A DNA stretch of 64,000 nucleotides from Mytilus edulis (GCF_963676685.1 NC_092347.1:70642935-70706934), one strand, 5' to 3'; shown: positions 5,380 to 45,612, counted from the stretch's first letter. The notes: generated from the sequence alone by a model not told the origin. Made by a program: numbers and translations.

Positions 5380-5640
5380 ACCAACGTTTGGCCAATGTTG
5401 TGCAGCCGACACCAACGTGCGACCAATGTACCGACAATTTGCCAACGTTGGGCCAATGTTGTGTAGCCAACATAAACTTGCGACCAACGGACCGACAATT
5501 TGCCAACGTTGGGCCAATGTTGTGCAGCCAACATAAACTTGCGACCAACGGACCGACAATTTGCCAACGTTTGGCCAATGTTGTGAAGCCAACACCAACG
5601 GTCGACCAACGGGCCGACCATTTGCCAACGTTGGCCCACT
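5380..5640. repeat. 60-bp-period satellite array of about 4.5 units built on the palindromic core CCAACGTTGG(G)CCAA
   Basis: Head-to-tail units of 'caatttgccaacgttgggccaatgttgtgcagccaacataaacttgcgaccaacggaccga' at 5385, 5445, 5505 and 5565. A degenerate leader occupies 5290-5380. The overlapping ORFs 5297..5645 on both strands are artefacts of the periodicity. Confidence 0.8.
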
Positions 5641-5721
5641 GTTAGTCTGCTGACTGGGTATTAACTATTATTTTACATAAATCAATTTTCCCATATCAGT
5701 AACTTCTCAGTCTACAGATCT

Positions 5722-8857: not shown

Positions 8858-10534
8858 ATTGTCTCTTATCAATTTCAGTATTCAGTACCTGTTTTTTTAT
8901 TTCAGATATTTGTTTCTTCCGAGACTGTGTATGGTTATTCCACATAGAGAGATTTTGAAATAATGACATCATTTATATATACGAACTAACACTGACGTCT
9001 CTATGTTTTACTATAAAAGAAACTTTATTGGAACTAAATATTACACTATACTATATTAGTCCAGAGACATAATAATATACATGTATATACATGCATAGTC
9101 TTATGTCCAGTCACCGTCCTATTACTTAAATGCATGGTTTTGCACTTTTAGATAAGCCAGTCAAGTTTGTTAAAAACTTCCATTTGTTGTCTTTTAGATA
9201 TTTTCTTGCATCTGGTGACCGAATGCTCACATAAATGCATATCTAGTCGCCGATAATATTTGACTGACAAAAAAAAACAACGTATAAAAACCTTGTACAC
9301 ATGGTCATGAATTGTTTGAGAGTAGTGTGCCAATAAGCTGGCCAAATTAAACTGAACTTAGCCAATATATTATAATTTGGGGAAAGATGATTAGCCTACA
9401 CCCCTGTCCAATGGCATTAATACCATCTAATGATCTACCATGAGCATCAAATACAGTATACCATCTAAGGCCACCTAACATGTCCCGTCTTGTGACAGTC
9501 GGTGATAAATAAAGGCAGCAGTAATTTAACACAAAGAACCAATCTCTTAAATTCGATCCGTTGCTTAAGATAGATTCGTCATCTAACAGACCAACATTTT
9601 GTAAGCAATTGGCAATATTAAATTGGTTAATATAAGTTTTAATATATTCTTATGGACTTCGACCCCTTCACATGCAGGCAACGCCTGTCTCATATATATA
9701 CATGTATATATATAGATATACTATAAAAATAAATAGAACACAGACTGACATAAAATTGAGAGTGAAAATGGGGAATGTGTCAAAGAGACTGACAACAACC
9801 AGACCAAAGATCAGAAAACAACACAAGACCATCAATGACCAATGGGTCTTCAACATAGCGAGAAAATGAAATGTCAGAAGAAAACATATCATAGTAGTGA
9901 AATCAATCTAAATCTCAGCCCTCCCCCTTAATTTTCCATTTTCCGATTGCAATCCCCGCCTTTGAAAATTGGATGTTAAAGAATGGGCTCACAAACATAC
10001 AACGGGAACCAGAAAAAGTACAAATACAACCAAAAAAGACCCCCCCCCCCCCCCAAAAAAAAAAAAAAAAAAAAGAATAAAAGAAAAAAAACCAATAAAA
10101 ATATTTTTTTGTTAATCAATTCAAGGATTTAGTAATACTAAAGAAATCCTTGAACAATTTCGCATATTTTCGTCGGTAAATTTTAAATTAGGGTCAATTT
10201 TTTAATTGTTTTTTTAATTGCTTTTAGTTTGTATTTGTATTGTTAAATTGTTTTTATGTTATGTTGGTTTGAAAAATCTTTAACGAACCCCTTTTTCTGG
10301 CTCCACCCATTTGATATCTGCCACTCCTTTTCAGGCTTTTGTGAGCAGACGGCATCCTTGTATTTCGTTGAAAATGCTTTCATTATTTAAACATATTATT
10401 TTGTAAATTACTATAACCCAAATAATCTCAGATTGAAACTTCCTTACCAATATTTTCTAGTGCTGTGAGAAAAAATTCAGCAAAAACTCTACGGACAAAA
10501 GTACTGTCAACTTTGAACTTTCACCTGCATACGG

Positions 10535-10778: not shown

Positions 10779-10929
10779 ATGGGTGAAACAAAGCCCAAAA
10801 TTGTGATCATCGGTGGAGGGATCGCTGGGATAGCCTTAGGAGACCATCTCGCTAACAATGGATTCAAAGATTACGTTATACTTGAAGCATCAAATAGAAC
10901 AGGCGGTAGAATATACACCGTCAATCTTG
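10779..10929 (+). CDS. Polyamine/spermine oxidase-like flavin amine oxidase, coding exon 1
   Basis: First in-frame ATG, at 10779; the ORF track starts at a TTG at 10770, and there is an in-frame TGA at 10764-66. The exon encodes MGETKPKIVIIGGGIAGIALGDHLANNGFKDYVILEASNRTGGRIYTVNLG, a Rossmann dinucleotide-binding motif (GxGxxG) followed by the EAS..GGR motif typical of FAD amine oxidases. It ends at a consensus donor, G|GTAAGT, at 10930 in phase 1. Confidence 0.8.
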
Positions 10930-11552
10930 GTAAGTTATCCCAGTGTAAAAATGTATGCCATGGTTTCATTTCGTGATAGTTCTCGTTTGAATACATTGTC
11001 ACCTTAGCAAAAAGAAAGTAACCCAGTATCATAGTAAAAATACAATATAATAATATAAAAGTGTGTTCAATTGTCATTATTATTAGGCGATTGGTCATGT
11101 CTTTGTATTTTATGAAATTACATTGCCTGAACTCGATGACACATTTTTAGATTTTTGTGAATGATTGTGTGAAGGTCAAAATAGGACATATGTACAGAAC
11201 GTCTGGCAACAAACCAATCAAATTTCTATATATAAATAGAACCAGTTTTACTACAGGGAAATACTGCTTCACAAGGAAATAATTTGTTATCAAGAAAATG
11301 TTTGAGGGACACATGGTTTTTTCATTTCACATGTTCAAAATGTGTATTTGGACCTCTTTCTCAACTTTATAAAAATTTTGCAGTTTTTCAAATTATGTCA
11401 ATTATATTCATTCTCTGTACAACATGTACAATTTTGGTATTATTTCTAGAAATAAAGAGGTTGCACAGGCACTTGTATCTATCCATTGGAAGACCCACTA
11501 TCAATGTATATTTTCTGTGGTTGGAACATTGGGCCTTTTTGTGGATAGTATA

Positions 11553-11716
11553 CAGTGGCGGATCCAGAACTTTTCAGGGGGGGGGGGGGGGGGGCCGCTG
11601 ACTGACCTAAAAGGGGGGGGGCTCCAGTCATGCTTCAATGTTTCCCTATATAATCAACCAAATTTTTCCCATGAAAGGGGGGGGCCCAGCCAGGCCCCCC
11701 CCTGGATCCGCCTATG
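11553..11716. mobile_element. Palindromic G/C-homopolymer-rich MITE, copy 1 (164 bp) with a 5-bp TSD GTATA
   Basis: Termini are cagtggcggatccag...ctggatccgcctatg. The internal sequence has G15, G9 and G8 runs plus C7/C8 runs. It is flanked by gtata|...|gtata at 11548-52 and 11717-21. Confidence 0.7.
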
Positions 11717-12149
11717 GTATACAAAAATCTTGTTTCATTTTACAAAATTTGATAGATATAGCTATTAAGCTCATGTGAATCTTCAATAGTCAATACTTTA
11801 TAAACTACAACTGTAACTGACTCTGTTTTCATAACAAAAATTGACTTACATGTACAATCTGAAAGTTGGTCTGTCTTACAGTTTCTTTAAATTTCAAAAA
11901 GATTTACTGGTCATACCATGCAGGGGTTGCATACCTGCCAACTGTCACTATTTGTGGGGGATTTCCCCCATGAAGGCGGGTACCACGATTACCCGAGAAA
12001 TACAAGAACAACGCAATATCCCCAAAACAAACGGATACATCCCAATAACAAGGTTCTTTTATGGTGTTATACAGTGTTAAATTAGTGTAACAGTATACAA
12101 TTATAAGGTTTAACTAAGACATTCATAATTGATAAAAGTACACGCAATC

Positions 12150-12311
12150 CAGTGGCGGATCCAGAAATTTTCCTAAGGGGGGGCCCGCTGACTGACCTAA
12201 GAGGGGGCCCGCTCCAGTCATGCTTCAATGATTCCCTATATAATCAACCAAATTTTTCCCACGAAAGGGGGGGCCCGGGCCCCCCAGGGCCCCCCCCTGG
12301 ATCCGCCTATG
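12150..12311. mobile_element. Palindromic G/C-homopolymer-rich MITE, copy 2 (162 bp) with a 5-bp TSD CAATC
   Basis: About 90% identical to copy 1, with the same termini. It is flanked by caatc|...|caatc at 12145-49 and 12312-16. The poly-Gly/Pro ORFs 11284..11768 and 12152..12433 are artefacts of the G/C runs. Confidence 0.7.
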
Positions 12312-13139
12312 CAATCTTAAGAGAATCCATTTGTATAACTTGTATGCAAACTCCTTGTGAAAACAATATGGTGGACGTTATACATGTATTTAATTTTGTA
12401 TACAAGACATACATGTACAAATCAAATTCTTGAAGTGATATTGCACTTTTATGGAGTAAAATTGAGTAATATCTTTATATTTTTTAATATTGTTAAAAAT
12501 AGTATAACACCATTCAAAAGTAGCATACATGTACATGTAACACCATAAAAAATCTTTATATCGGGATATATCAGGTTTTTTTTGGGATATTATAATTAAG
12601 GTTCTTGTATTTCTTGGGAAATCGTGGTACTGCATGAAGGCTCTCAAATTGAAATTTTGAAAGAGCAATTTTGTCCACAATTTAAGCAAAACAATTAATT
12701 TTACAATGACTTTAGGCTTATAAAAGTATAAAGAAGCCAAAAAACCAACATTAAAATTTATTTGCAGGCCCCCTTGAAGGTTTTTAGGACTATGACAGCC
12801 ATCTTGCACTCAAAACCCCCATGGGCATTTTGAAAAGTTGGCAGGTATGGGGTCGTGGTTGTTACAGTGTATTCATAAAAAAACCTGTTGATTTAGTAAT
12901 TTAGTAAATACAACACAAACTATTCATGTAGTCTATGTTCATTCCATTTATGGTCCCTCAAGGGAGTTATATCGACATGTACAAACAATACAGTACAAGC
13001 TAGATGACCAGTGAACAATCGGAACAAACATGTACTCAGAAGAGCAATAAGTATAATACTAGACCATTTTTAATGTTCAGTACTCTGCTTTGGGGCTCTG
13101 TGCAGCAGTGCTACCCTAGGCGAGCCAACGTTGGATTGT

Positions 13140-13990: not shown

Positions 13991-15642
13991 TCATCTCTTT
14001 TGTCGTAAAGTTTTGTTTTGAACCAACCCTCATTGTCAAATTCTAGATGAAAGCTAAGTCAAGATATGAGGCCGACTTTACTGTATCTGTAGTATCCTTT
14101 ATCTCTAGTTCAATGGGATAGATCGATGTGTTCAACATTCATGTAGTCACCAAATTTTAAAGTATTTAGTGAAAGAAACATCTATATAGCGGAAAGTAGA
14201 CCCGACCAAAAAGCAGACAACAGCCGAAAGCTGTAATGTATGCATTTGGATATTCACAAAGGGTTTAAGGTACATGCACATGAGATGTGGATGATACACA
14301 TTGTAGTATAATTGTAGGTGAAGACTAGACATTTTTTAGGTCAAGTTGAAGTATTTAAATATTTTTACATGTGCAACAGTAACATGGCATGCTTAAAGGT
14401 ACAAACATGAAAAAAATATACGTTTTAAATTCAATCTGAATGTTCACTGTTACTTGAAAAACAGTTTTCATTATACACTCTTTATAGTCTTGTAGCCAAG
14501 ATTTACTGTCTACATTTAGATATTTATTTTACAAACCACTTACATCAAGGCTGATGGTCGGACCTGTGGCTAAGTGAAGACTAATGTCAATAAAATTAAA
14601 TATTATTTGATGGTTTGAAATGCTCTTTGAAATTTCACCGTACTAGAACTCTAAGATTTGTGCCACATAAGTTTAAGTTTCATGTGGTATTTTTTTTGTA
14701 CATGGTAACCTATGTCTTATCATTGTTTTTGAACCTATTGAACCAGAAACAGACTAGTACAAGCTATGCATTGTACCATACACATGTCAGTTGCATACCA
14801 CAAGACATCATGATGAGATGTCACTACTTTGCACAATGCAGTATCTATTAGTACAATGGAAAATTGTACCTATCATTAAAAAAATGTGACCAACTCAATG
14901 TTACATGTATAAATAAGGAAATGCATGTGGTTTGATTGCCAATGTCTATCTGACAAGAGTCCAAATGAAATGAATATAAAAAGTTATAGGTCAACATAGC
15001 CTTGTAACAAAAATTAGTAAACCCATACTTTTATACATACATAGCTATAGTCGAATGTATAAAAAGGCCCCAACATGACAAAAAAGTCTGGTAGAAAAAT
15101 AAAACATTTTCTTAATTGTAACAAGCTTTAGAGCTGACTACCGGTACATGTATGTGGTAAAGGGTATGCACAGGGTATGTACTTGTATTCTATACAAAAT
15201 CTTCTTTGGTAACTAAAATTGCATGTCACTGCTTTAGATAAAATCCTGTTGTCATGTTCATAAACATGCATGTTTTTTTTTGCACACAAGTTTTTGAAAG
15301 TGACCATTCTTGTTAAACTCAGTTTATTTACTCATTGTATTATTGTACATGTATACTTACATAGTGTATATCGATTAAGTCTCCTTTTTATTAAACTAGC
15401 TGTTACTTATTGTACATTTTTGTAAAAACCTCTCATCTGGTTGAATGATTATTATGACTATTTTCACACACTTTCTAAAAATGGCACATTAAAAACTGAA
15501 CTTATAAAGTTTAAAACCTAAATATAAATCCTGTACGTGTACATGTATATTAAAGCCAAGAAACTGGGACCCACTACAAGTAGAAATGATTTTGAAGAAA
15601 TTAAGAATATAATAAATATTTTTTTTAAATGATATTTTTCAG

Positions 15643-16557
15643 ATGCCGAAGGCCATAAAGCAGAAATGGGGGCCAATTGGATACATGGCATAGAAAGAAA
15701 CCCAATTTTTAAAATTGCTGATGACAATAATTTGCTAGAATTGAGACATGGCAATAAAGGTCTTCGTAATAAAACATCCTTTATAATGGAAAATGGAGAG
15801 GAAGTAACTGAAAAAATAGTCAATCAAGTAAATTTGAACTATGGGCAACTAATTATGCAAGCAGAGGATTTTTATCAAAATGGTATGCCCACAATGGAAG
15901 AAAATGATAGTGTTGGGGCATTTCTGGAACGTGAATATGAAGACACTTTGGAACGATATACAAATGGTGACCGTCATATTAGAGAATTGTTGTTTGATCA
16001 GCGAAAAAGGCTAGAGTGTTGTATATCTGGCTGTGATTCATTGTCAGAGGTTTCTTTGAGTGAGTTTGGAAGTTACGAAGAACTACCAGGTGTTCATTAT
16101 ACAATCCCACCCGGTTTTACTGCAGTTTTAGAAATCCTAAAAAGTAGTATCCCAAAGGAAAATATTTTACTCAATCATCCAGTCAAATGTATACGATGGA
16201 ATAGACAATTTCCTGATCCAGAAAAAAATGTTTATGAATGTTGTGTTGAATGTGAAAACGGTGAAAAATTCTATGCAAATCACGTAATATGTACTGTTTC
16301 ACTAGGTGTTTTAAAAGCTGCATGTGATAGGATGTTTAACCCACCATTGCCTAAAATGAAATTAGATGCAATAGATGCAGTTGGATTTGGCATTGTAGAC
16401 AAAGTTATTATTCAGTTTGATGAACCAGTGACAGAGCCAGAATTGTTCCGTGTAGAACTTGTGTGGGACAATGATCTCATTGAAATGAATGATCTGCGAC
16501 ACACGTGGTATCGTAAAATATACTCCTTTGAAGTGGTACATGACAATGTTTTAGTTG
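15643..16557 (+). CDS. Polyamine/spermine oxidase-like, coding exon 2 (about 305 codons)
   Basis: Acceptor tttttcag| immediately upstream. Splicing from exon 1 in phase 1 gives ...VNLG|DAEGHKAEMGANWIHG..., and GANWIHG is the conserved substrate-binding motif of SMOX/PAOX. The long open frame in AT-rich DNA (ORF 15666..16574) includes VICTVSLGVLK, which matches the SMOX/PAOX 'VTVSLGVLK' motif. The exon ends at donor G|GTGAGT at 16558 in phase 1. The start coordinate is uncertain by about 1 bp. Confidence 0.85.
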
Positions 16558-17524
16558 GTGAGTATAATTGTTAAAGTGGCATTGGTGCTATCTGGACTGT
16601 CTTTTTTTGCTTAGATTGTATCAACGATTGAGTAATGAAATTTTTGAAGTTTACAGGGTTCTCACTATACATGTATAGTACATAGAGTCCAAGTGCCATG
16701 GACAAATCTTTTTCAAAACTGGTTAAAAAATATCAATATGTAAGTATCACTGTTGTTGCTTCATCAGTTCATAATATATACATGATATTATATATATATA
16801 TGTATAAAATACACTTTTGGAATTATTAGATGTATCAATGAGGGCTGTACATGTTATCCCGATTGGCTGTATCTAATATAATTTACACCAAGATATTAAG
16901 GTTGATACAAAAGTTTGATTTTTGATACTTTAGGAGAAGGATCTTGCAGCAAATTTATGATGAAAGCAAGATAAATGCAGGATATCCAATACATGTAATA
17001 TAACAACACCTCGGTTAAAAATTACATTTTTGTACTTGCATACTTTATTGTAGTACTACATTTTGTACATGTAATGAAGTCTTAATGAACATGAACATAC
17101 AATGTATATAGACAATGTAAAATTAGGAGGCCAACATCAGTTTGTTTTGACCAGTTATATTAACTTTTCGTGTTCATCCACATGCATACATGTATCTGAG
17201 AAAGAGAAATGTATTGAACGCTTTTTCTTTGTGGAGAGCTTTGTGTAAATATTTCTTTTTCAGATAATATTTATTAAGTTCTATTATTATCATGATTATT
17301 ATTTATTTGTTACCATGGTACATTTGTTACAGAACAAAATCAATAGTTACCAGGTGCTACAAATGTATTTGTACATGTACATAGTATATATGAATACATT
17401 TACATGTAGGTATACACAAAAAAAACTTGTGATTCTACCCACCTAGCTTGAACATGTTGAAGAATTCTGGGCCCTCAAGTGACCTATACATAGCTATTTT
17501 AAAGAGATACAAATGTAAGTTGGT

Positions 17525-20230: not shown

Positions 20231-21589
20231 GTCTTGAAATTGACCTCATTTTCAACGTTCTTCAATGGTTAATGTACATGTTAAGTTTTTTGTATGGGAG
20301 TCTGTTTCTCAGGTACATTTACTATAACTAACTATAAGCAATATGGTCACCATAATCATAATACAGACTAAAAAATTCCATACAGTGACAGTCTTATTGT
20401 CCGGCAACACATATTGTTTTCAAATATGCTAACTAACATCTGGCAGGTGATCATGGTGATGGGAGACAGATTTGAAAGTACACATGCACTTACACTTATA
20501 CTTAATAGATGCATTCATCTGCTTTTAATTAAATACAAAGTATATATTTAATGGTTTTAAAACAAGTTTTATTTTCAGCAGTTGTTCACCAGTACATGCA
20601 TGTTTCTGTTTGATCTTGTGCATGTACATTTTGTAAATTATCATCTTCCTCAGACATCATGGTAAACTGTAAATATACATTTGGGTACACCATCACTACA
20701 TGCAGTACATGTTCAAATTTATATCTTATCTTTTTGCTATTTAAAAAGTATGTTTTGTGCTTTTTGGTTTTATTTGAAGAAATGCATGTTTATGAATAAC
20801 TACAATCATGACAATGTATAAATAAAAGGAGATAATGAGCAAGGTTATGCAGCAGTCATATTTGCCTAACATGTTTTATTTTGTTAAAAAATCACTGATT
20901 GATAAATATTCCAAACTAAAACATCCAGGATATATCGATAATGCTTCCAAGCTTAGGTTTGATTTTGTGGTCATATTTTTTCATGCAGCAAGCGTTAATA
21001 ATCTCCTTTTAATTATTAAATCACTGGTAGCAGTATAATACATCATACATGTATATAATAATAAAACATGTACATGTAGGTTCATTTAAAATTTAAATGC
21101 AAGGTTATTTAAGGTAACATGTACATTTAAAAACACTCTTGTATGAGTGATTCGTTGTGTAACTAACAGAGTGATGGCTGGGGATTCAAGGTTATAACAC
21201 TTACAATGTATATGACCCTGTGTTTAAGATTAGGCATACATCAGTCTAATACTTTAGCAATATATGCATAATGCAGAGCAATATTACAGAGTTAATCACC
21301 TACAATCACTAAAAATTCTCTCCATGGAGTGATATATGTAACTGAATTAACTTTTGTGTATATATAATACATATATGTACATGTATACAGGTACAAAATG
21401 TAGTATTAAAAAAAAGCCTACCACGTGCACTCATTTCACAAAAAGTCTTATAAAGAAAAATGGTTGTAAGTCAGTATAACTTATGACCTGGCCTGTTCAA
21501 ATTTAAATTTTTGAGGCCATCTCAGACATCAATTAATCTGTTATCTCTTTATATTTATACATGTTTCAGGAACTGATATATTTTTTTAG

Positions 21590-21719
21590 GATGGTTAAGT
21601 GGTAAAGAAGCACTGTATATGGAGTCATTGACGGAAGAGCAGATAGGACAAGACATTGTGGAGGCTCTGAAAAAATTCCTTAGTAAAAAAGACATTCCAC
21701 AGCCAAGAAAAGTCATCAG
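21590..21719 (+). CDS. Polyamine/spermine oxidase-like, coding exon 3
   Basis: Acceptor tttttttag|. The exon encodes (G)WLSGKEALYMESLTEEQIGQDIVEALKKFLSKKDIPQPRKVI(R), collinear with the vertebrate SMOX/PAOX segment '...GW(I/L)xGxEAxxMExLxDEEV...P.P(K/R)xxLRS'. It joins exon 2 as NVLVG|WLSG and ends at donor ag|GTACAT in phase 2. Confidence 0.8.
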
Positions 21720-24700
21720 GTACATGTAGCAATATGTTTCAAACAATTATTTATGTTAACTTGCACTTTACAAACATTTACATGATCCTATATTACTGTG
21801 ACCCCTGTTTTTTTTTAATCATGCATATTATATGTTTATTCAAGTTATTGATTGAAGCACTGATTGACATGTCATTTGATTGACAGACAAATACTCCCTC
21901 AACCAGAGATTGTATTGACTATACATTATCATAAGGATGGTCATAATTTTTGATTTCTTTAATTTAAGTGGCGGAACATGTACAGGTTGTGGGTTCCAGA
22001 GGTTGGATTTTTTTTGGCGATCAATTTTGAATGGTGACACATGGTTTGAACCCCCCTCCCTTATGCTGGGTTGAGAACCCCCTTATGAAAATGGTTGTAT
22101 CCACCCCTGAGTTTTGACATCATCTACATGATCTAGACTTGTTGTAATCTTTCATAATTGGGCCGACTTGGCACCTAGATAGAAACTTTTTAGTCATTTC
22201 CCATTGGTTCTTCTATTTATGTATTTCAGGTATACTTATAAATGGTATGATTGCAAATGAGACAACTCTCAGCTACCATAGACTTAGTTAACAACAAAAT
22301 GCCGCCATATGTCCTTCATAACAATGAATAAAACCAATACCGCATAGTCAGCTCTTAAAGGCCCCAAATTTGTATATTCGATATCAATTTTAAATTCTTC
22401 AATCCCTCCCTTTATCTGTCACTAGGGTTGTACGTGACGTGGAACATATACTTTTATTCATGGTTAAAAGGTGAGATAATACAGTGTGTTGGGTTTTTCT
22501 ACCTATCTTTTTTTATCACTCTTTTCCCACACCCCCTTCAATGAATTTTAGTAACATTGAATAACCTGTAACAAGTGTTAAACCTGTAGACAGGTAAAAA
22601 TACTCAGACTTTTGATGTTGTAATGAGATATTTAACAGTTACAAAAGGTATTTCCTGTACAAGCCTTAAAAATCAGCCGATCAGTAGACAAGCTTGAATG
22701 AGATTCATATCCCTGAATCAAGTTTCTCAAATATTCACATATTTAAGATTTTACTCAGGTCTTAGTATTGATTGTTGAAATATATGTGTAAAGATTTTTT
22801 TTCATTTTCAATTGCAAAAAATAAAGATTAGATGACACAAGATTAAACAAGTGAATCACTAGGAACTGATGATTATTGGGTAATTGATTTGTGATTCATG
22901 TATATTTTAATCAGATCAGGTTTTAGAATTTGTATGATTCATCTTTTCTTCAAGTGTTGATGAGAGAATGTATATACCCAAAAGCATTATGTATGTCCTT
23001 AGACAAGCATACATGGTTGTGTTTAAATGTTTTACAGATATATAGTCAAAGTTTAATTAAAATATAAACTGTGGACTTGTTTGCCTTAGTGAATGATAAA
23101 TACATGTAAATACCTTTACAAAGAAGTATTATAATATAAATAAGATATTAAGTATATTTGATAGAGTGCATATGAAACCGCACATTATTAAAATTCTGTC
23201 GGTTTGTCAAAGTCATCGTAATGCACTCGTTTCGCTCAATGACTTAAAGCACTCAGTTTAAAACAATTTACATCTTACTTCAATAGGGAAAATCTAAAAA
23301 CAAAACAACAATAAACAATAAACAATAAACAAACAAAGCAAGTAAAGTAAGACTATGAAATGAACCAAAATGTGTCATTTAAAAATAAAAGTTTGTCAAT
23401 TGGACAAATGTCTCTAAATCTATATTTTTCCATAATTAGTCCATAATAATTGGAAATGAATAATAAGATTTGATTATAATATTTTTGTCATAGGAAAGTT
23501 ACTTAATACAGCCAAGAAATAAAAATTTAGGTGCATATTCTTTTTCATTTCTATTTGTATGAATATTGTAACTTTTTGATAATATATGAAATAGAAGATA
23601 CATATATATATATTTCTCTAATTCTTCGTCAATTTATCCCTTTCTGCACCCGTTGTATAATAATTTTTAATCACCTTGTGGTTTGTTTGTTCTCAGTTCT
23701 TCATTGGTTAAAATACGATTATGATGTTTTATTTTTTTGCTTTCTTCTGAATTTCCTATTGTGATGGCATGAAAAAAGGCGACCGCCAAGCCTCGCGTTT
23801 TAAATTTGAAAATTTAACCGTCTCGAGTGGATAAATATCGTATCACACTCGATGACGTGGTAGAATCTACATATATTTAGATCTAACTCTGTCTCAATAT
23901 ACATCAGTTTTGTTTAATCTTAATGATTGAAAACGTAATACATTTATGTCATTATAAGCTTCATTTGGCTTTCAATGATCAATAATCCATCATTTTAAAT
24001 GCATTATAAGCTGTCAAATTCATTACCACCTAATTGACTTAAACTGTAAGCTTGAATAGTTAAGATAAATTATAATATATTACAGCAAAAAAAAAGACTT
24101 ATAAGCCAGGGCCAGGACAAACAGTGCAATACCCTCTTGGGTAGTCAAGGTTGTTAAACCTTCGTGTTAAACACACATGTAGTAATGGTATTCCCAAACC
24201 AGTAAGACCTTACTATACATTAATTTGCCTTTTCTAAATTAGAAAACTCTATGGTGGTTATCTTTGTTAATATCTAAATGTCTGAACCTGGAGCAATTCA
24301 TATGGACTAACATTATATGTCTGGACCTAAAGCATTTAAAATCTGACCCATCTGGACTAATGTTATCCACTTGTCTATTGTTGAATATTGTATAATGACC
24401 TTTTGAATTAGATGTCTTATTGCATGGTCATTTAGGCATACTTTACATACATCTCAGTTCATACATATTTAATCGTAGATATTTCATACATTTAACTTCT
24501 CTGGGAGCATATTTCTATGTATAAAGGCAATCTAGATAAGAGACAGAAGACTTGTTATGTCTCGTAGTTCGTGACAACTAATGTTACATTTACATTTTGT
24601 AAGTGGCTTCTAATGTCCCCATCTTAAGAACTGGGGAAGGCCTTCTAGACATTTGCCAATTGCAGCTTGAAGCACACATATAAATTTGTATAATCTGGGT

Positions 24701-32649: not shown

Positions 32650-33375
32650 TGTGATTTAGGCCACTTCACCTATGTCTGTCAGTCCCATTAACATATAGGC
32701 CACTTCACCTATGTATGTCAGTCCCATTGACATATAGGCCACTTCACCTATGTCTGTCAGTCCCATTGACATATAGGCCACTTCACCTATGTCTATCAGT
32801 CCCATTGCCATATAGGCCACTTCACCTATGTTTATCAGTCCCATTGACATAGGCCACTTCACCTATGTCTATCTGTCCCATTGACCTATAGGCCACTTCA
32901 CCTATGTCTGTCAGTCCCATTGACCTATAGGCCACTTCACCTATGTCTGTCAGTCCCATTGACCTATAGGCCACTTCACCTATGTCTATCAGTTCCATTG
33001 ACCTATAGGCCACTTCACCTATGTCTGTCAGTCCCATTGACCTATAGGCCACTTCACCTATGTCTATCAGTCCCATTGACCTATAGGCCACTTCACCTAT
33101 GTCTGTCAGTCCCATTGACCTATAGGCCACTTCACATATGTCTATCAATCCCATTGACATATAGGCCACTTCACCTATGTCTGTCAGTCCCATTGACCTA
33201 TAGGCCACTTCACAAGTCTGTCAGTCCCATTGACATATAGGCCACTTCACCTATGTCTATCAGTCCCATTGACATATAGGCCACTTCACCTATGTCTGTC
33301 AGTCCTATTGACATATAGGCCACTTCACCTATGTCTATCAGTCCCATTGACCTATAGGCCACTTCACCTATGTCT
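32650..33375. repeat. 39-bp-period minisatellite of about 18.5 units
   Basis: The unit gccacttcacctatgtctgtcagtcccattgac(a/c)tatag is repeated head-to-tail with sporadic substitutions (ctgtc/ctatc, gacat/gacct). Because the period is a multiple of 3, ORFs 32656..33240 are open on both strands and are artefacts. Confidence 0.85.
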
Positions 33376-36300
33376 ATCATTTGTCACTTGTTAAAGTGTC
33401 AATTTCAATAGCACACACTAATTATATTTTTTTTTAAATGCTGTATAGACTATTTGCTACCTCTAGTTGTCGAGGCTTCGACTTTAGTCGAAAAAGCGAG
33501 ACTAAGCGAGACTACATTCAGTCGTCGGTGTCGTTGGCGGCGTCCACAAATATTCACTCTGTGGTTAAAGTTTTTAAAATTTTAATAACTTTCTTAAACT
33601 ATCCTGGGTTTGTACCAAACTTGGACAGAAGCTTAATTATGATCATAAAATAGTATCCAGAAGTAAATTTTGTAAAAAAAATAATTCATTTTTTCAGTAT
33701 TTTACTTTTAAATGGACTTATATTTTCTTCCAGTTAACCATACATACATGTACAGTCTGCAGTTGTTTTTAAAACATTTATTAGATTCATAAACTATCCT
33801 GGATTTTAACCAAACTTGGACAGAACATTACAATCAAAAGATTGTATCAAGGGGAATATTTGATTGAGTTTCTTCCTCATTTTTGTTGAGCCTTTGATTT
33901 ACAGCAAAAGTAGGCGAGACACTGGGTTCCGCGGAACCCTTACAATTTTTTTTTGATATTTTGACTTAAAGATGTTCAGGGTTTGATCAATTAGGTATGA
34001 CATTGTTCTTTATTTCTACACCTATGGTCTAAAAGTGTTTTGCTTAGGTATGATAAACAAGAAGACAGATGTGTAGAATGTTACAGTCTGACACCTGTAC
34101 CCTGTTAGGTTCTATGATATATGTAGTACATTTCTTTAAACTGACATATTACGGTCAGGACTTCTGTTTCTGAGGTGTGAGTTAATGAGTTTTGGGTCAA
34201 TTTGTATCTATATATGGTGTAAAAATTTATATATAACAATTTACTAAAGGAGGCTTACAACATGTACAACATATGTCTCAATTGATCAACAGTAAAACCT
34301 GTTACAAGAGCCTGCAAATCTTGTGCCAAGGCCACAATTAAAAATATTTTGGTTTGCACCCTACCCAAGGTTGAGACAATGGGTAGGTAGGTAGGCATTT
34401 TCTTTTTTTTTCTTTTTTTTAAAGAAATTGAAGTATCAGATGTTTATTAGTCTTCATGCCTATCTGATTAAAAAAAAACATCTTCAAATCAGGACAATAA
34501 AGAATTTGAGTAGGCAGCTTTTTTCTGGGTAGGTAGGGTTTGGGCAAACAAACCTATTCTTTTTTATGGCCCAATCAGTTCAAATTGTTTGAGGGCCAAT
34601 AGGCAACACAAACAAAAGTTTTGATGATTTTCACTTAGTCAATGCATAATTCATTATTCCTTCATTCCTCTATATAACTTTCATCCATCTCCTTTAAATA
34701 TTGAATTTGGTGGAAAATTTTGACAAACTAAAGTGTTATATTCATAGCTGATGGTTTAATGGTGTAAAATTGATGCTAATAATATGTTTTGGTCAGAACA
34801 GGCTTCTGAAAACCAATCCTTGATATAGTGCATTAGTGGGTAGAAAAGTTATCTTCAGGAAATTCTGACTTAATCATGTGCTTGAAAACCTGTTGTAAAA
34901 AGAAGTAAAAATTAAGACCCTGACTTCCTTTTCAATTACACTTTTGTTTTGGTCAGACACTGGATTCTTTTGTATATACATGTAGCTAGCATATTCCCCT
35001 TCTTGACCTTGAAGATAAACAAATATGTTTCAGGCTGTACATAGTTTTATTTGCCAATGTCAACAAATATCCACTTACATTTTATGAAAAGAAATCTATG
35101 TATTTTGAAATTGATTTCTCTTTTGAAACTAAACAATAACAATGATTAGACATATACTATTCACACAGTGTGAAATATATATATTTATTAAAACACTTGA
35201 CCTCGATCTAATAATAAAGATTATGCGAAACCAATACCAGTGCCAATCAATAATATCAAAATTGTATCTGACACAACATGTGATGTTAAAAGTTAGAATA
35301 TACATATTTGAAAGTAAAATTTCATTTCTATTACTTCATAATATATTGGATAATGAAGTTATGACCTAGTTTTTTTGACTTGTTGATGATGTGTTGTGAA
35401 ATATGAAGATTTAAATGTTTGTCATGACGTCAACAGTCCCAGTTACCAGACAAACAATTCTGCGTACATGTAATGGGGTGGGCTAAGTACATTTCTAAGT
35501 ATTAAATCAAGTTTATGTTTATTTGTCCTTGCTCAAACTTCCTCATGCTTGTTCTTTTATTTAAAACTTTAAAATCTTAATTAAATTATGACATATAAAT
35601 TACGTTCAAAAGGAAATATTCATCTGTTAGCAGGATGCTATGTGATCATCGATTTTTACTCCTACACTGGATTAGTAACAGTGAAAACGTTCATTACTAT
35701 AACAAAGATTGCACCACATTTTTGTGGCATCTGTTAAGGTGTGGGGTTAATGTTTGTGTCTCTTACGAATTTAAATATTCCTTTGTCCTAGTATTTTTAA
35801 ATCAGAGCGTTTCATAAATTTATGATTCAATTTTATCATTGTTGCTTGGTTCAAATCAGTCCTTGGAAACACACTTGAGTTCTGTAATTATTAGTAACCA
35901 GAATCAGGCATGACTTAATTGAAATGCAACAGGAAAACAAGGAAATTGTGGATTACTTGGAAAAAGACATAAAAATATACCTGTATAGGAAATCAGATAA
36001 TTTTGGTTCATTGATTTTTGTTTTTCTTTATTTTAAAATATGTAGTATGTTTAAGTTAGAGGAAGACATGCTTTTGATGGTCATGTTTTGAACAGGAAGA
36101 GACCGACTGAATAAACAGGATAAACCTGTATAAACAATTCTCCCTTCCCTTTGTCAGCATAGTAAAGCTCAAGAGTACATGAATTGTTTATTAGTTTCAA
36201 GTTAATGTGTTGTAGCTTTTCCTAGAATTTGAATTTTCCACAAAAATGGTGGTATTGATTATGGATAAAACTTATGAATCTAATTATATAATATATTGAC

Positions 36301-43000: not shown

Positions 43001-43084
43001 AGGAGCATAGATTAGATCTTTAGCATGACAGTAGAACAGATGTATTTTTTTTTATTTGTATATATTCTTACCTTTCTTTTTCAG

Positions 43085-43202
43085 GACCAGATGGGGAAAT
43101 AACCCTTACACCAGAGGATCATATAGTTTCCTGAAAGTAGGAGCTCAGGCCGTAGACGTAGATGCTCTGTCAGAACCCTTAATGGGATCAGAATCTGATA
43201 AG
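43085..43202 (+). CDS. Polyamine/spermine oxidase-like, coding exon 4
   Basis: Acceptor ctttctttttcag|. The exon encodes (R)TRWGNNPYTRGSYSFLKVGAQAVDVDALSEPLMGSESDK and contains the highly conserved 'W..NPY.RGSYSY' motif of SMOX/PAOX. It ends at donor AAG|GTGAGA in phase 0. Confidence 0.8.

Positions 43203-45469: not shown

Positions 45470-45612
<143 letters not shown>

Follow-up and report, generated by a model that had tools for sequence, protein, structure and literature searches.

The described systems that come closest to the short element studied here are hAT transposons, on the one hand, and Transib and RAG-like transposons, on the other. hAT elements end in the motif YARNG (PMC3014272), typically have TIRs of 5-27 bp (PMC3517528) and canonically make 8-bp TSDs. 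At the third position of the terminus, hAT elements always have a G where the RSS and Transib have a C, and Pegasus is counted among the hAT elements (PMC1131882, Fig. S7 legend). In the silkworm, the Pegasus-like MITEs BmMITE-13 (CAAGGGCGGATCCAG), BmMITE-14 (CAGTGGCGGATTA) and BmMITE-16 (CAGTGGCGGATTT) all have 8-bp TSDs (PMC2997013). One group of hAT elements, hAT5, makes 5-bp TSDs (PMC12730594; PMC9004415), and is credited to Kapitonov & Jurka 2007, as cited in those two papers. Transib elements have a 38-bp TIR with a CACAATG heptamer and a nonamer, and prefer GC-rich targets even in AT-rich genomes (PMC1131882), while the bivalve RAG-like transposons make 5-bp TSDs and have the TIR consensus CACTWMCAAACKTYKBB, in which CAC is invariant (PMC7204232). 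In both of these, a second conserved block, A-rich or nonamer, is present (PMC1131882; PMC7204232). As for the hosts, hAT ranks second in richness among the DDE superfamilies of bivalves, and a single Transib signature was detected across the surveyed molluscs (PMC10294476).

In the window, i.e., the whole 64-kb stretch of DNA that was analysed, two copies of a MITE were delimited, both on the + strand. Copy 1 occupies 11553-11716 (164 bp; 5' TIR at 11553-11567 and 3' TIR at 11702-11716), and copy 2 occupies 12150-12311 (162 bp; 5' TIR at 12150-12164 and 3' TIR at 12297-12311) and is situated inside an older outer element, which agrees with the original prediction of two copies of 162-164 bp. 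Each copy starts with CAGTGGCGGATCCAG and ends with CTGGATCCGCCTATG, the TIR pair being CAGTGGCGGATCCAG and, as the reverse complement, CATAGGCGGATCCAG, in which 13 of the 15 positions are paired as an inverted repeat. A search of the 64 kb with the terminal 15-mer, allowing up to two mismatches, returned four sites, all of which are the ends of copies 1 and 2; the chance expectation with up to three mismatches is 0.28 matches. No third copy was found in the window using pattern and BLAST searches, and the remaining G/C runs that it contains (G9 at 2477 and C15 at 10040) are unrelated to the MITE. The GC content of the element is 60% compared to 32% for the window. The claimed identity of about 90% between the copies fits the obtained values of 94% when only substitutions are considered and 83-87% when indels are included, nearly all of the gaps being located in the G/C homopolymer runs.

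The homology between the two copies ends precisely at their termini, beyond which the flanking DNA is unrelated. Copy 1 is flanked by GTATA, which adjoins its 5' terminus at 11548-11552 and recurs at 11717-11721, and copy 2 by CAATC, which is found at 12145-12149 and 12312-12316. A distinct perfect 5-bp TSD on each copy, read originally as a signature of transposition by a MITE that had inserted twice, is thus present at both sites; at the base composition of the window, such a match of 5-mer flanks has a chance probability of p = 0.0018 per copy. Because the flanks are unrelated and the TSDs differ, copies 1 and 2 did not arise by local duplication; each is a separate insertion of a MITE of ~150-165 bp, a class II transposon that is non-autonomous.

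Further members of the family were retrieved by translating the window copies, searching a protein database and then examining the DNA around the matching ORFs. This approach was effective since gene-calling programs had annotated short ORFs that span the copies. Copies 1 and 2 are open in one frame over the whole element, and in most of the other copies the open frame covers at least the core (...PLTDLRGGPLQSCFNDSLYNQPNFSHERGGP...); this open frame is probably incidental, and it is through it that gene callers emit "proteins" from the MITE. The ENA assemblies ERZ6864376, ERZ27052906 and ERZ964674 and the Logan runs SRR29152238 and SRR29152241 yielded eight additional complete copies and several partial ones on unrelated public contigs. 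With the truncated L013, which comes from the JGI metagenome contigs, copies were thus obtained in L001-L005, L013 and L018-L024, all with unrelated flanks. Together with the two window copies, ten complete copies were therefore available for the tabulation of TSDs, and nine of the ten, from independent contigs, are flanked by perfect, mutually different 5-bp duplications: in addition to GTATA and CAATC, these are TGTAC (L001), ATACC (L002), GCTTA (L005), TACTT (L018), CTAAA (L019), TCATT (L021) and AGTAC (L024). The probability of obtaining at least nine of ten by chance is p ~2e-24. The 5-bp TSD is therefore real and a property of the MITE family, and the family itself is real and present in bivalve-type genomes. 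The tenth copy (L023:119-280, on a 552-bp metagenome contig) has no TSD, its flanks reading CGGGG and GCAAT; this may be due to a chimeric assembly, to copies having recombined with each other or to a deletion in the flank.

The same table bears on the reading in which no transposon is involved, and the repeats are an assembly or cloning artefact, a local tandem duplication, a structured RNA gene or a SINE. There are features that might point in that direction: a BamHI site (GGATCC) is present in both ends, the G/C homopolymers are error-prone and the two copies lie less than 760 bp apart. However, at least four independent assemblies contain copies, the flanks of which are unrelated and the TSDs different, and the flanks of the window copies are likewise unrelated to each other. 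No Rfam family scored above noise, the sole match being sX12 (24.8 bits against a gathering score of 106), and neither a tRNA nor a poly-A tail was found; TIRs and TSDs together are also not features of a SINE. More generally, searches against Pfam (with the ORFs spanning the copies) and Rfam and for tRNA similarity gave nothing in any copy of the MITE. The multi-locus TSD table refutes the non-transposon reading in practice, and we assign it practically no probability.

The copies share a common anatomy. The complete ones measure 134-164 bp, and the 15-bp terminal repeat is conserved in every one of them. In the alignment of the family (A4), the 15-bp TIR is followed by AAATTTTC and, past a short spacer, by a G run. 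Next come a unit of ~24 bp (GGGGGCCCRCTGACTGACCTAAGA) and a diverged repeat of that unit (GGGGGCCCGCTCCAGTCAYGC), then an AT-rich core that is well conserved (TTCCCTATATAAKCAACC), and lastly G and C runs that lead up to the 3' TIR. The window copies have the first ~24-bp unit, as do most of the copies from ERZ6864376 and ERZ964674; L005 has a part of it, and L003 and L004 lack it. The subfamily from ERZ6864376 and ERZ964674 ends in ...CTAAATCCGCCTCTG, its 3' terminus being CAGAG when read as the reverse complement. At L004:533-772, two partial copies are joined head to head, with 533-659 on the + strand and 772-652 on the - strand; they form either an inverted dimer or a nested insertion.

Long G and C runs had been singled out in the original prediction. 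In copy 1, these runs are G18 at 11577-11594, G9 at 11613-11621, G8 at 11677-11684 and C8 at 11695-11702; the first of them had been given as G15, and its actual length of 18 is an expansion specific to this copy compared to all of the other family members in alignment A4. The run lengths vary in nearly every copy of the family, which fits either slippage or sequencing error. The description of the element as palindromic, or nearly self-complementary, was not borne out. When each copy was compared with its own reverse complement, identical columns numbered 88 of 164 for copy 1 and 100 of 162 for copy 2, which is the level of shuffled sequences (93 +/- 5.7). Folding gave copy 1 a z-score of -0.53 and copy 2 one of -4.0, and in the predicted single-strand folds pairing was restricted to the TIRs and local G/C hairpins; the comparison with the reverse complement and the folding together rule out a palindrome, as only the ends pair.

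Each copy had also been proposed as a strong candidate for a G-quadruplex (G4) or an i-motif. This stood insofar as the canonical G4 motifs of the 64-kb window are found exclusively within copies 1 and 2, with a G4Hunter score of +2.8 over the G18 run, and these motifs can now be explained as the cargo of a transposon. As a family-wide property, however, it had to be rejected: the G4 motif is absent from seven of the ten family members and the C-strand equivalent from eight of the ten, and the quadruplex potential therefore comes from the expansion of runs in particular copies. The G and C runs are part of the inverted subterminal regions of the element, and changes in their length by slippage, or possibly by assembly error, could create an incidental G-quadruplex motif in a copy such as copy 1 with its G18. 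Elsewhere in the window, G4Hunter gives a score beyond -2 at one site alone, a C15 directly followed by A20 at 10040-10074, which is not related to the MITE and lies ~700 bp upstream of the start codon of a spermine-oxidase-like gene.

With regard to the superfamily, the termini of the family resemble those of hAT elements. Each of the 11 intact 5' ends starts with CAGTG or CAGAG, in agreement with the YARNG motif and with G at position 3. The 3' ends, read as the reverse complement, are more variable: CAGAG in most of the ERZ6864376 and ERZ964674 copies, CAAAG in L019 and CATAG in the window copies and L005, the CATAG of the window copies departing from YARNG at position 3. The 15-bp TIR falls within the range of hAT TIRs, while the 5-bp TSD departs from the canonical hAT length. 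A literature search with the exact terminus returned only PCR primers for the 13-mer and the silkworm Pegasus-like MITEs for the 9-mer, and when the terminus was compared with those of the Pegasus-like hAT MITEs, 11-13 of 13-15 positions were identical.

The same terminus was found on other families of elements, which are non-coding. The JGI metagenome contigs were scanned with the first 23 nt of the MITE, which gave 12 loci, nine of them distinct. Their interiors differ, with the exception of L013, which is a truncated copy of the MITE family itself, and a G run follows the terminus in most of them. One of these elements (L010:1125-1315, 191 bp) shares the first 23 nt with the MITE and is flanked by a perfect 8-bp TSD (TGCTTAGA), the classical hAT length. 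This observation comes from one locus, and chance would lengthen a genuine 5-bp TSD to 8 bp in about 1 in 64 cases. Another (L007:2169-3350, 1182 bp, non-coding) has the 5-bp TSD TTATC and a 3' end in which 11 of 15 positions agree with the TIR. Three of the terminus-sharing families (L007:2260-2325, L012 and L016) also have a GC-rich motif, GGGGTCTGGGGAGCG.YGTAARCTCCCCAGCGG, in common in their interior. No matches to the 23-nt terminus or to a 21-nt core were obtained when viral contigs and the genome contigs of bacteria and archaea were scanned.

Neither the window nor the 24 recovered loci contained an autonomous element or a hAT transposase bounded by the termini of the MITE. The search for such a partner, which covered the ORFs past the terminus in L017, L010 and L007, a six-frame regular expression for hAT motifs applied to the window and all recovered loci, and a Pfam search of candidate ORFs, returned no transposase. 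All that it turned up was a Schlafen-like gene in L003, which has no relation to the MITE, and a fragment at L017:1-318 (numbered with the shared terminus on the left), which by eye appears to be part of a Tc1/mariner transposase (...FFTDDKNFYLNPP...); this fragment lies outside the terminus-sharing element of that contig and is unrelated to it. Because no autonomous partner was found, the superfamily call rests on the terminal sequence and on analogy. On this basis, the family probably belongs to the hAT superfamily, with Pegasus-like ends and a hAT5-like 5-bp TSD, and the two copies in the window would be two independent insertions of such an element.

The original prediction had seen in the CAGTG start and the 5-bp TSD a hint, which it called weak, of a Transib element. 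Under this reading, the MITE would be mobilised by a Transib or RAG-like (RAGL) transposase, and CAGTG would be a degenerate heptamer. It is true that the TSD of 5 bp, which the MITE family also makes, is invariant in Transib and in the protostome RAGL transposons, that pteriomorph bivalves harbour RAGL transposons along with a few non-autonomous derivatives and that the termini of the MITE have the form 5'-CA...TG-3', as in the CMC/Transib clade. The sequence of the ends, however, speaks against it. The first three bases, CAC, are invariant and critical for function in the RSS, Transib and RAGL, and no end among the 12 aligned MITE copies has them. At positions 8-10, GGA is found in place of AAA, and no nonamer follows after a 12- or 23-bp spacer, the left offsets reading TTTCCTAAG and GGGGCCCGC and the right ones consisting of G/C runs. 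Moreover, the nine TSDs of the family have 14 GC bases of 45 (31%, a small sample of n=9) against a window background of 32%, whereas Transib prefers GC-rich targets; the terminus of the MITE also occurs on elements with 8-bp TSDs, and Transib DDE signatures are almost absent from molluscs. With no CAC end, no second block and AT-rich targets, the Transib hint was not upheld, and a Transib or RAGL origin appears very improbable. The underlying idea that a 5-bp TSD is a Transib hallmark is outdated, as hAT5 elements also make 5-bp TSDs (PMC12730594; PMC9004415), and caution is needed since a TSD of this length is in itself no signature of RAG or Transib.

A different objection to the hAT assignment is that the MITE could belong to another or an undescribed superfamily with 5-bp TSDs and have come to resemble the hAT/Pegasus ends by convergence. 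Its advocates could point out that the assignment was made without a transposase, that the length of the TSD is off the hAT norm and that the CATAG 3' end is off YARNG. Nevertheless, convergence hardly explains the identity of 11-13 of 13-15 positions to the Pegasus-like termini, nor does it explain a sibling element that has both the 23-nt terminus in common with the MITE and an 8-bp TSD, and a 5-bp variant of the TSD is already documented within hAT. We consider such an origin unlikely, though less so than a Transib one. A hAT element with Pegasus-like ends and a hAT5-like duplication is the most economical reading.

Whereas the boundaries, TIRs, TSD length and dispersal of the family, and its want of any coding or RNA-family signal, can be read from the copies, we infer the hAT transposase partner and the chemistry of transposition. 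A transposase encoded elsewhere in the genome would bind the 15-bp TIRs together with the conserved subterminal stretch (TIR, AAATTTTC and G run). The element would then be excised and joined to a target that had been cut with a 5-bp stagger, the repair of which would produce the 5-bp duplications.

The surroundings of copy 2 have a history of their own. The inverted repeats around this copy, which had been described as 35 bp long at 11975-12010 and 12600-12640, are real, and they are in fact considerably longer: the outer element occupies 11978-12632, is ~488 bp long without copy 2 and has TIRs of ~90 bp (11980-12069 and 12538-12630) that are 79% complementary. A perfect 9-bp direct repeat, CATGAAGGC, is located at 11969-11977 and 12633-12641, two bases outside each arm. 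Since ~90-bp TIRs and a 9-bp repeat flank copy 2, it was inserted into an older element of ~488 bp, and the proposed nesting is thus supported. The outer element falls within the 9-11-bp TSD and long TIR criteria of Mutator-like elements, and we infer from its sequence that it looks like a Mutator-like element (MULE). No second copy of it was found in the window or in the recovered loci. The outer element is in turn bracketed by a perfect 14-nt inverted repeat (CATACCTGCCAACT at 11930-11943 and AGTTGGCAGGTATG at 12836-12849) with some further similarity; no clear TSD was seen at this repeat, which may be a third, still older nested TIR element.

Both copies of the MITE, as originally proposed, are located in intron 1 of an amine oxidase gene. 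Mapping a 475-aa relative (P0001) onto the window placed the exons of a spermine-oxidase-like gene at 10779-10928, 15642-16559, 21580-21720, 43077-43202 and 45497-45610. The first coding exon (+ strand, 10779-10928/10929; MGETKPKIVIIGGG...) ends at a GTAAGT donor, and the second (+ strand, 15642-16559) is preceded by the acceptor TTTTCAG; given the positions of this donor and acceptor, both copies therefore lie within the first coding intron, in the sense orientation. An ORF of 302 aa at 15666-16574 corresponds to the spermine/polyamine oxidase exon. The best named spermine-oxidase matches were to the bivalves Mizuhopecten (73%) and Tegillarca (71%), and unnamed transcript contigs reached up to 91%. 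The two intronic insertions have no coding capacity, and an effect on the spermine-oxidase-like gene is not evident. Two tandem repeats were also observed in the window: a 39-bp repeat at 32657-33379 (18.6 copies, 93% identity) in a long intron of the gene, which gives spurious 120-aa ORFs on both strands, and a 61-bp repeat at 5381-5643 (4.3 copies, 89% identity) upstream of it.

As its ends are hAT-like and not those of the RAG-related Transib, the MITE is an ordinary mobile element. MITEs are abundant in bivalves, and hAT-type ends as well as 5-bp TSDs are documented, which gives the finding little weight for biology at large. It is of direct use for repeat libraries, as it defines a family to mask, with its clean boundaries, its subfamilies, the 24-bp duplication in its interior and its G/C runs of variable length. 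Of modest interest is the occurrence of a Pegasus-like hAT terminus on elements with 8-bp and with 5-bp duplications. The hAT end CAGWGGCGGATCCAG (AAATTTTC and the G run) is found both on families with 8-bp TSDs (the silkworm Pegasus-like MITEs and L010) and on families with 5-bp TSDs (this MITE and L007), and the 5-bp form might be an independent switch outside the hAT5 clade, a possibility that we put forward tentatively and regard as doubtful. If closely related transposases recognise these ends and differ in the stagger of the target cut, they would be a natural pair for studying what sets the length of hAT TSDs.

Compared with the known systems, the outer element is similar to the MULE MITEs in its ~90-bp TIRs, its 9-bp TSD and its lack of coding capacity, but it differs from them in being a single copy in the window and the recovered loci, with TIRs that have diverged by 21% and two mismatched terminal bases. 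The MITE itself has the 5-bp TSD and the 5'-CA...TG-3' termini in common with Transib and RAGL; unlike them, it has neither a 5'-CAC nor an A-rich or nonamer block, its targets are AT-rich and its TIR is shared with elements that have 8-bp TSDs. The resemblance to the Pegasus-like hAT MITEs, i.e., Anopheles Pegasus and those of the silkworm, is closer: the TIR is nearly the same, the elements are short (~150-430 bp) and non-coding, and their copies are dispersed, whereas the 8-bp TSDs, unrelated interiors and insect hosts set these MITEs apart. With the hAT5 group, which was reported in invertebrates and fish, the MITE has in common hAT-type ends combined with a 5-bp TSD.
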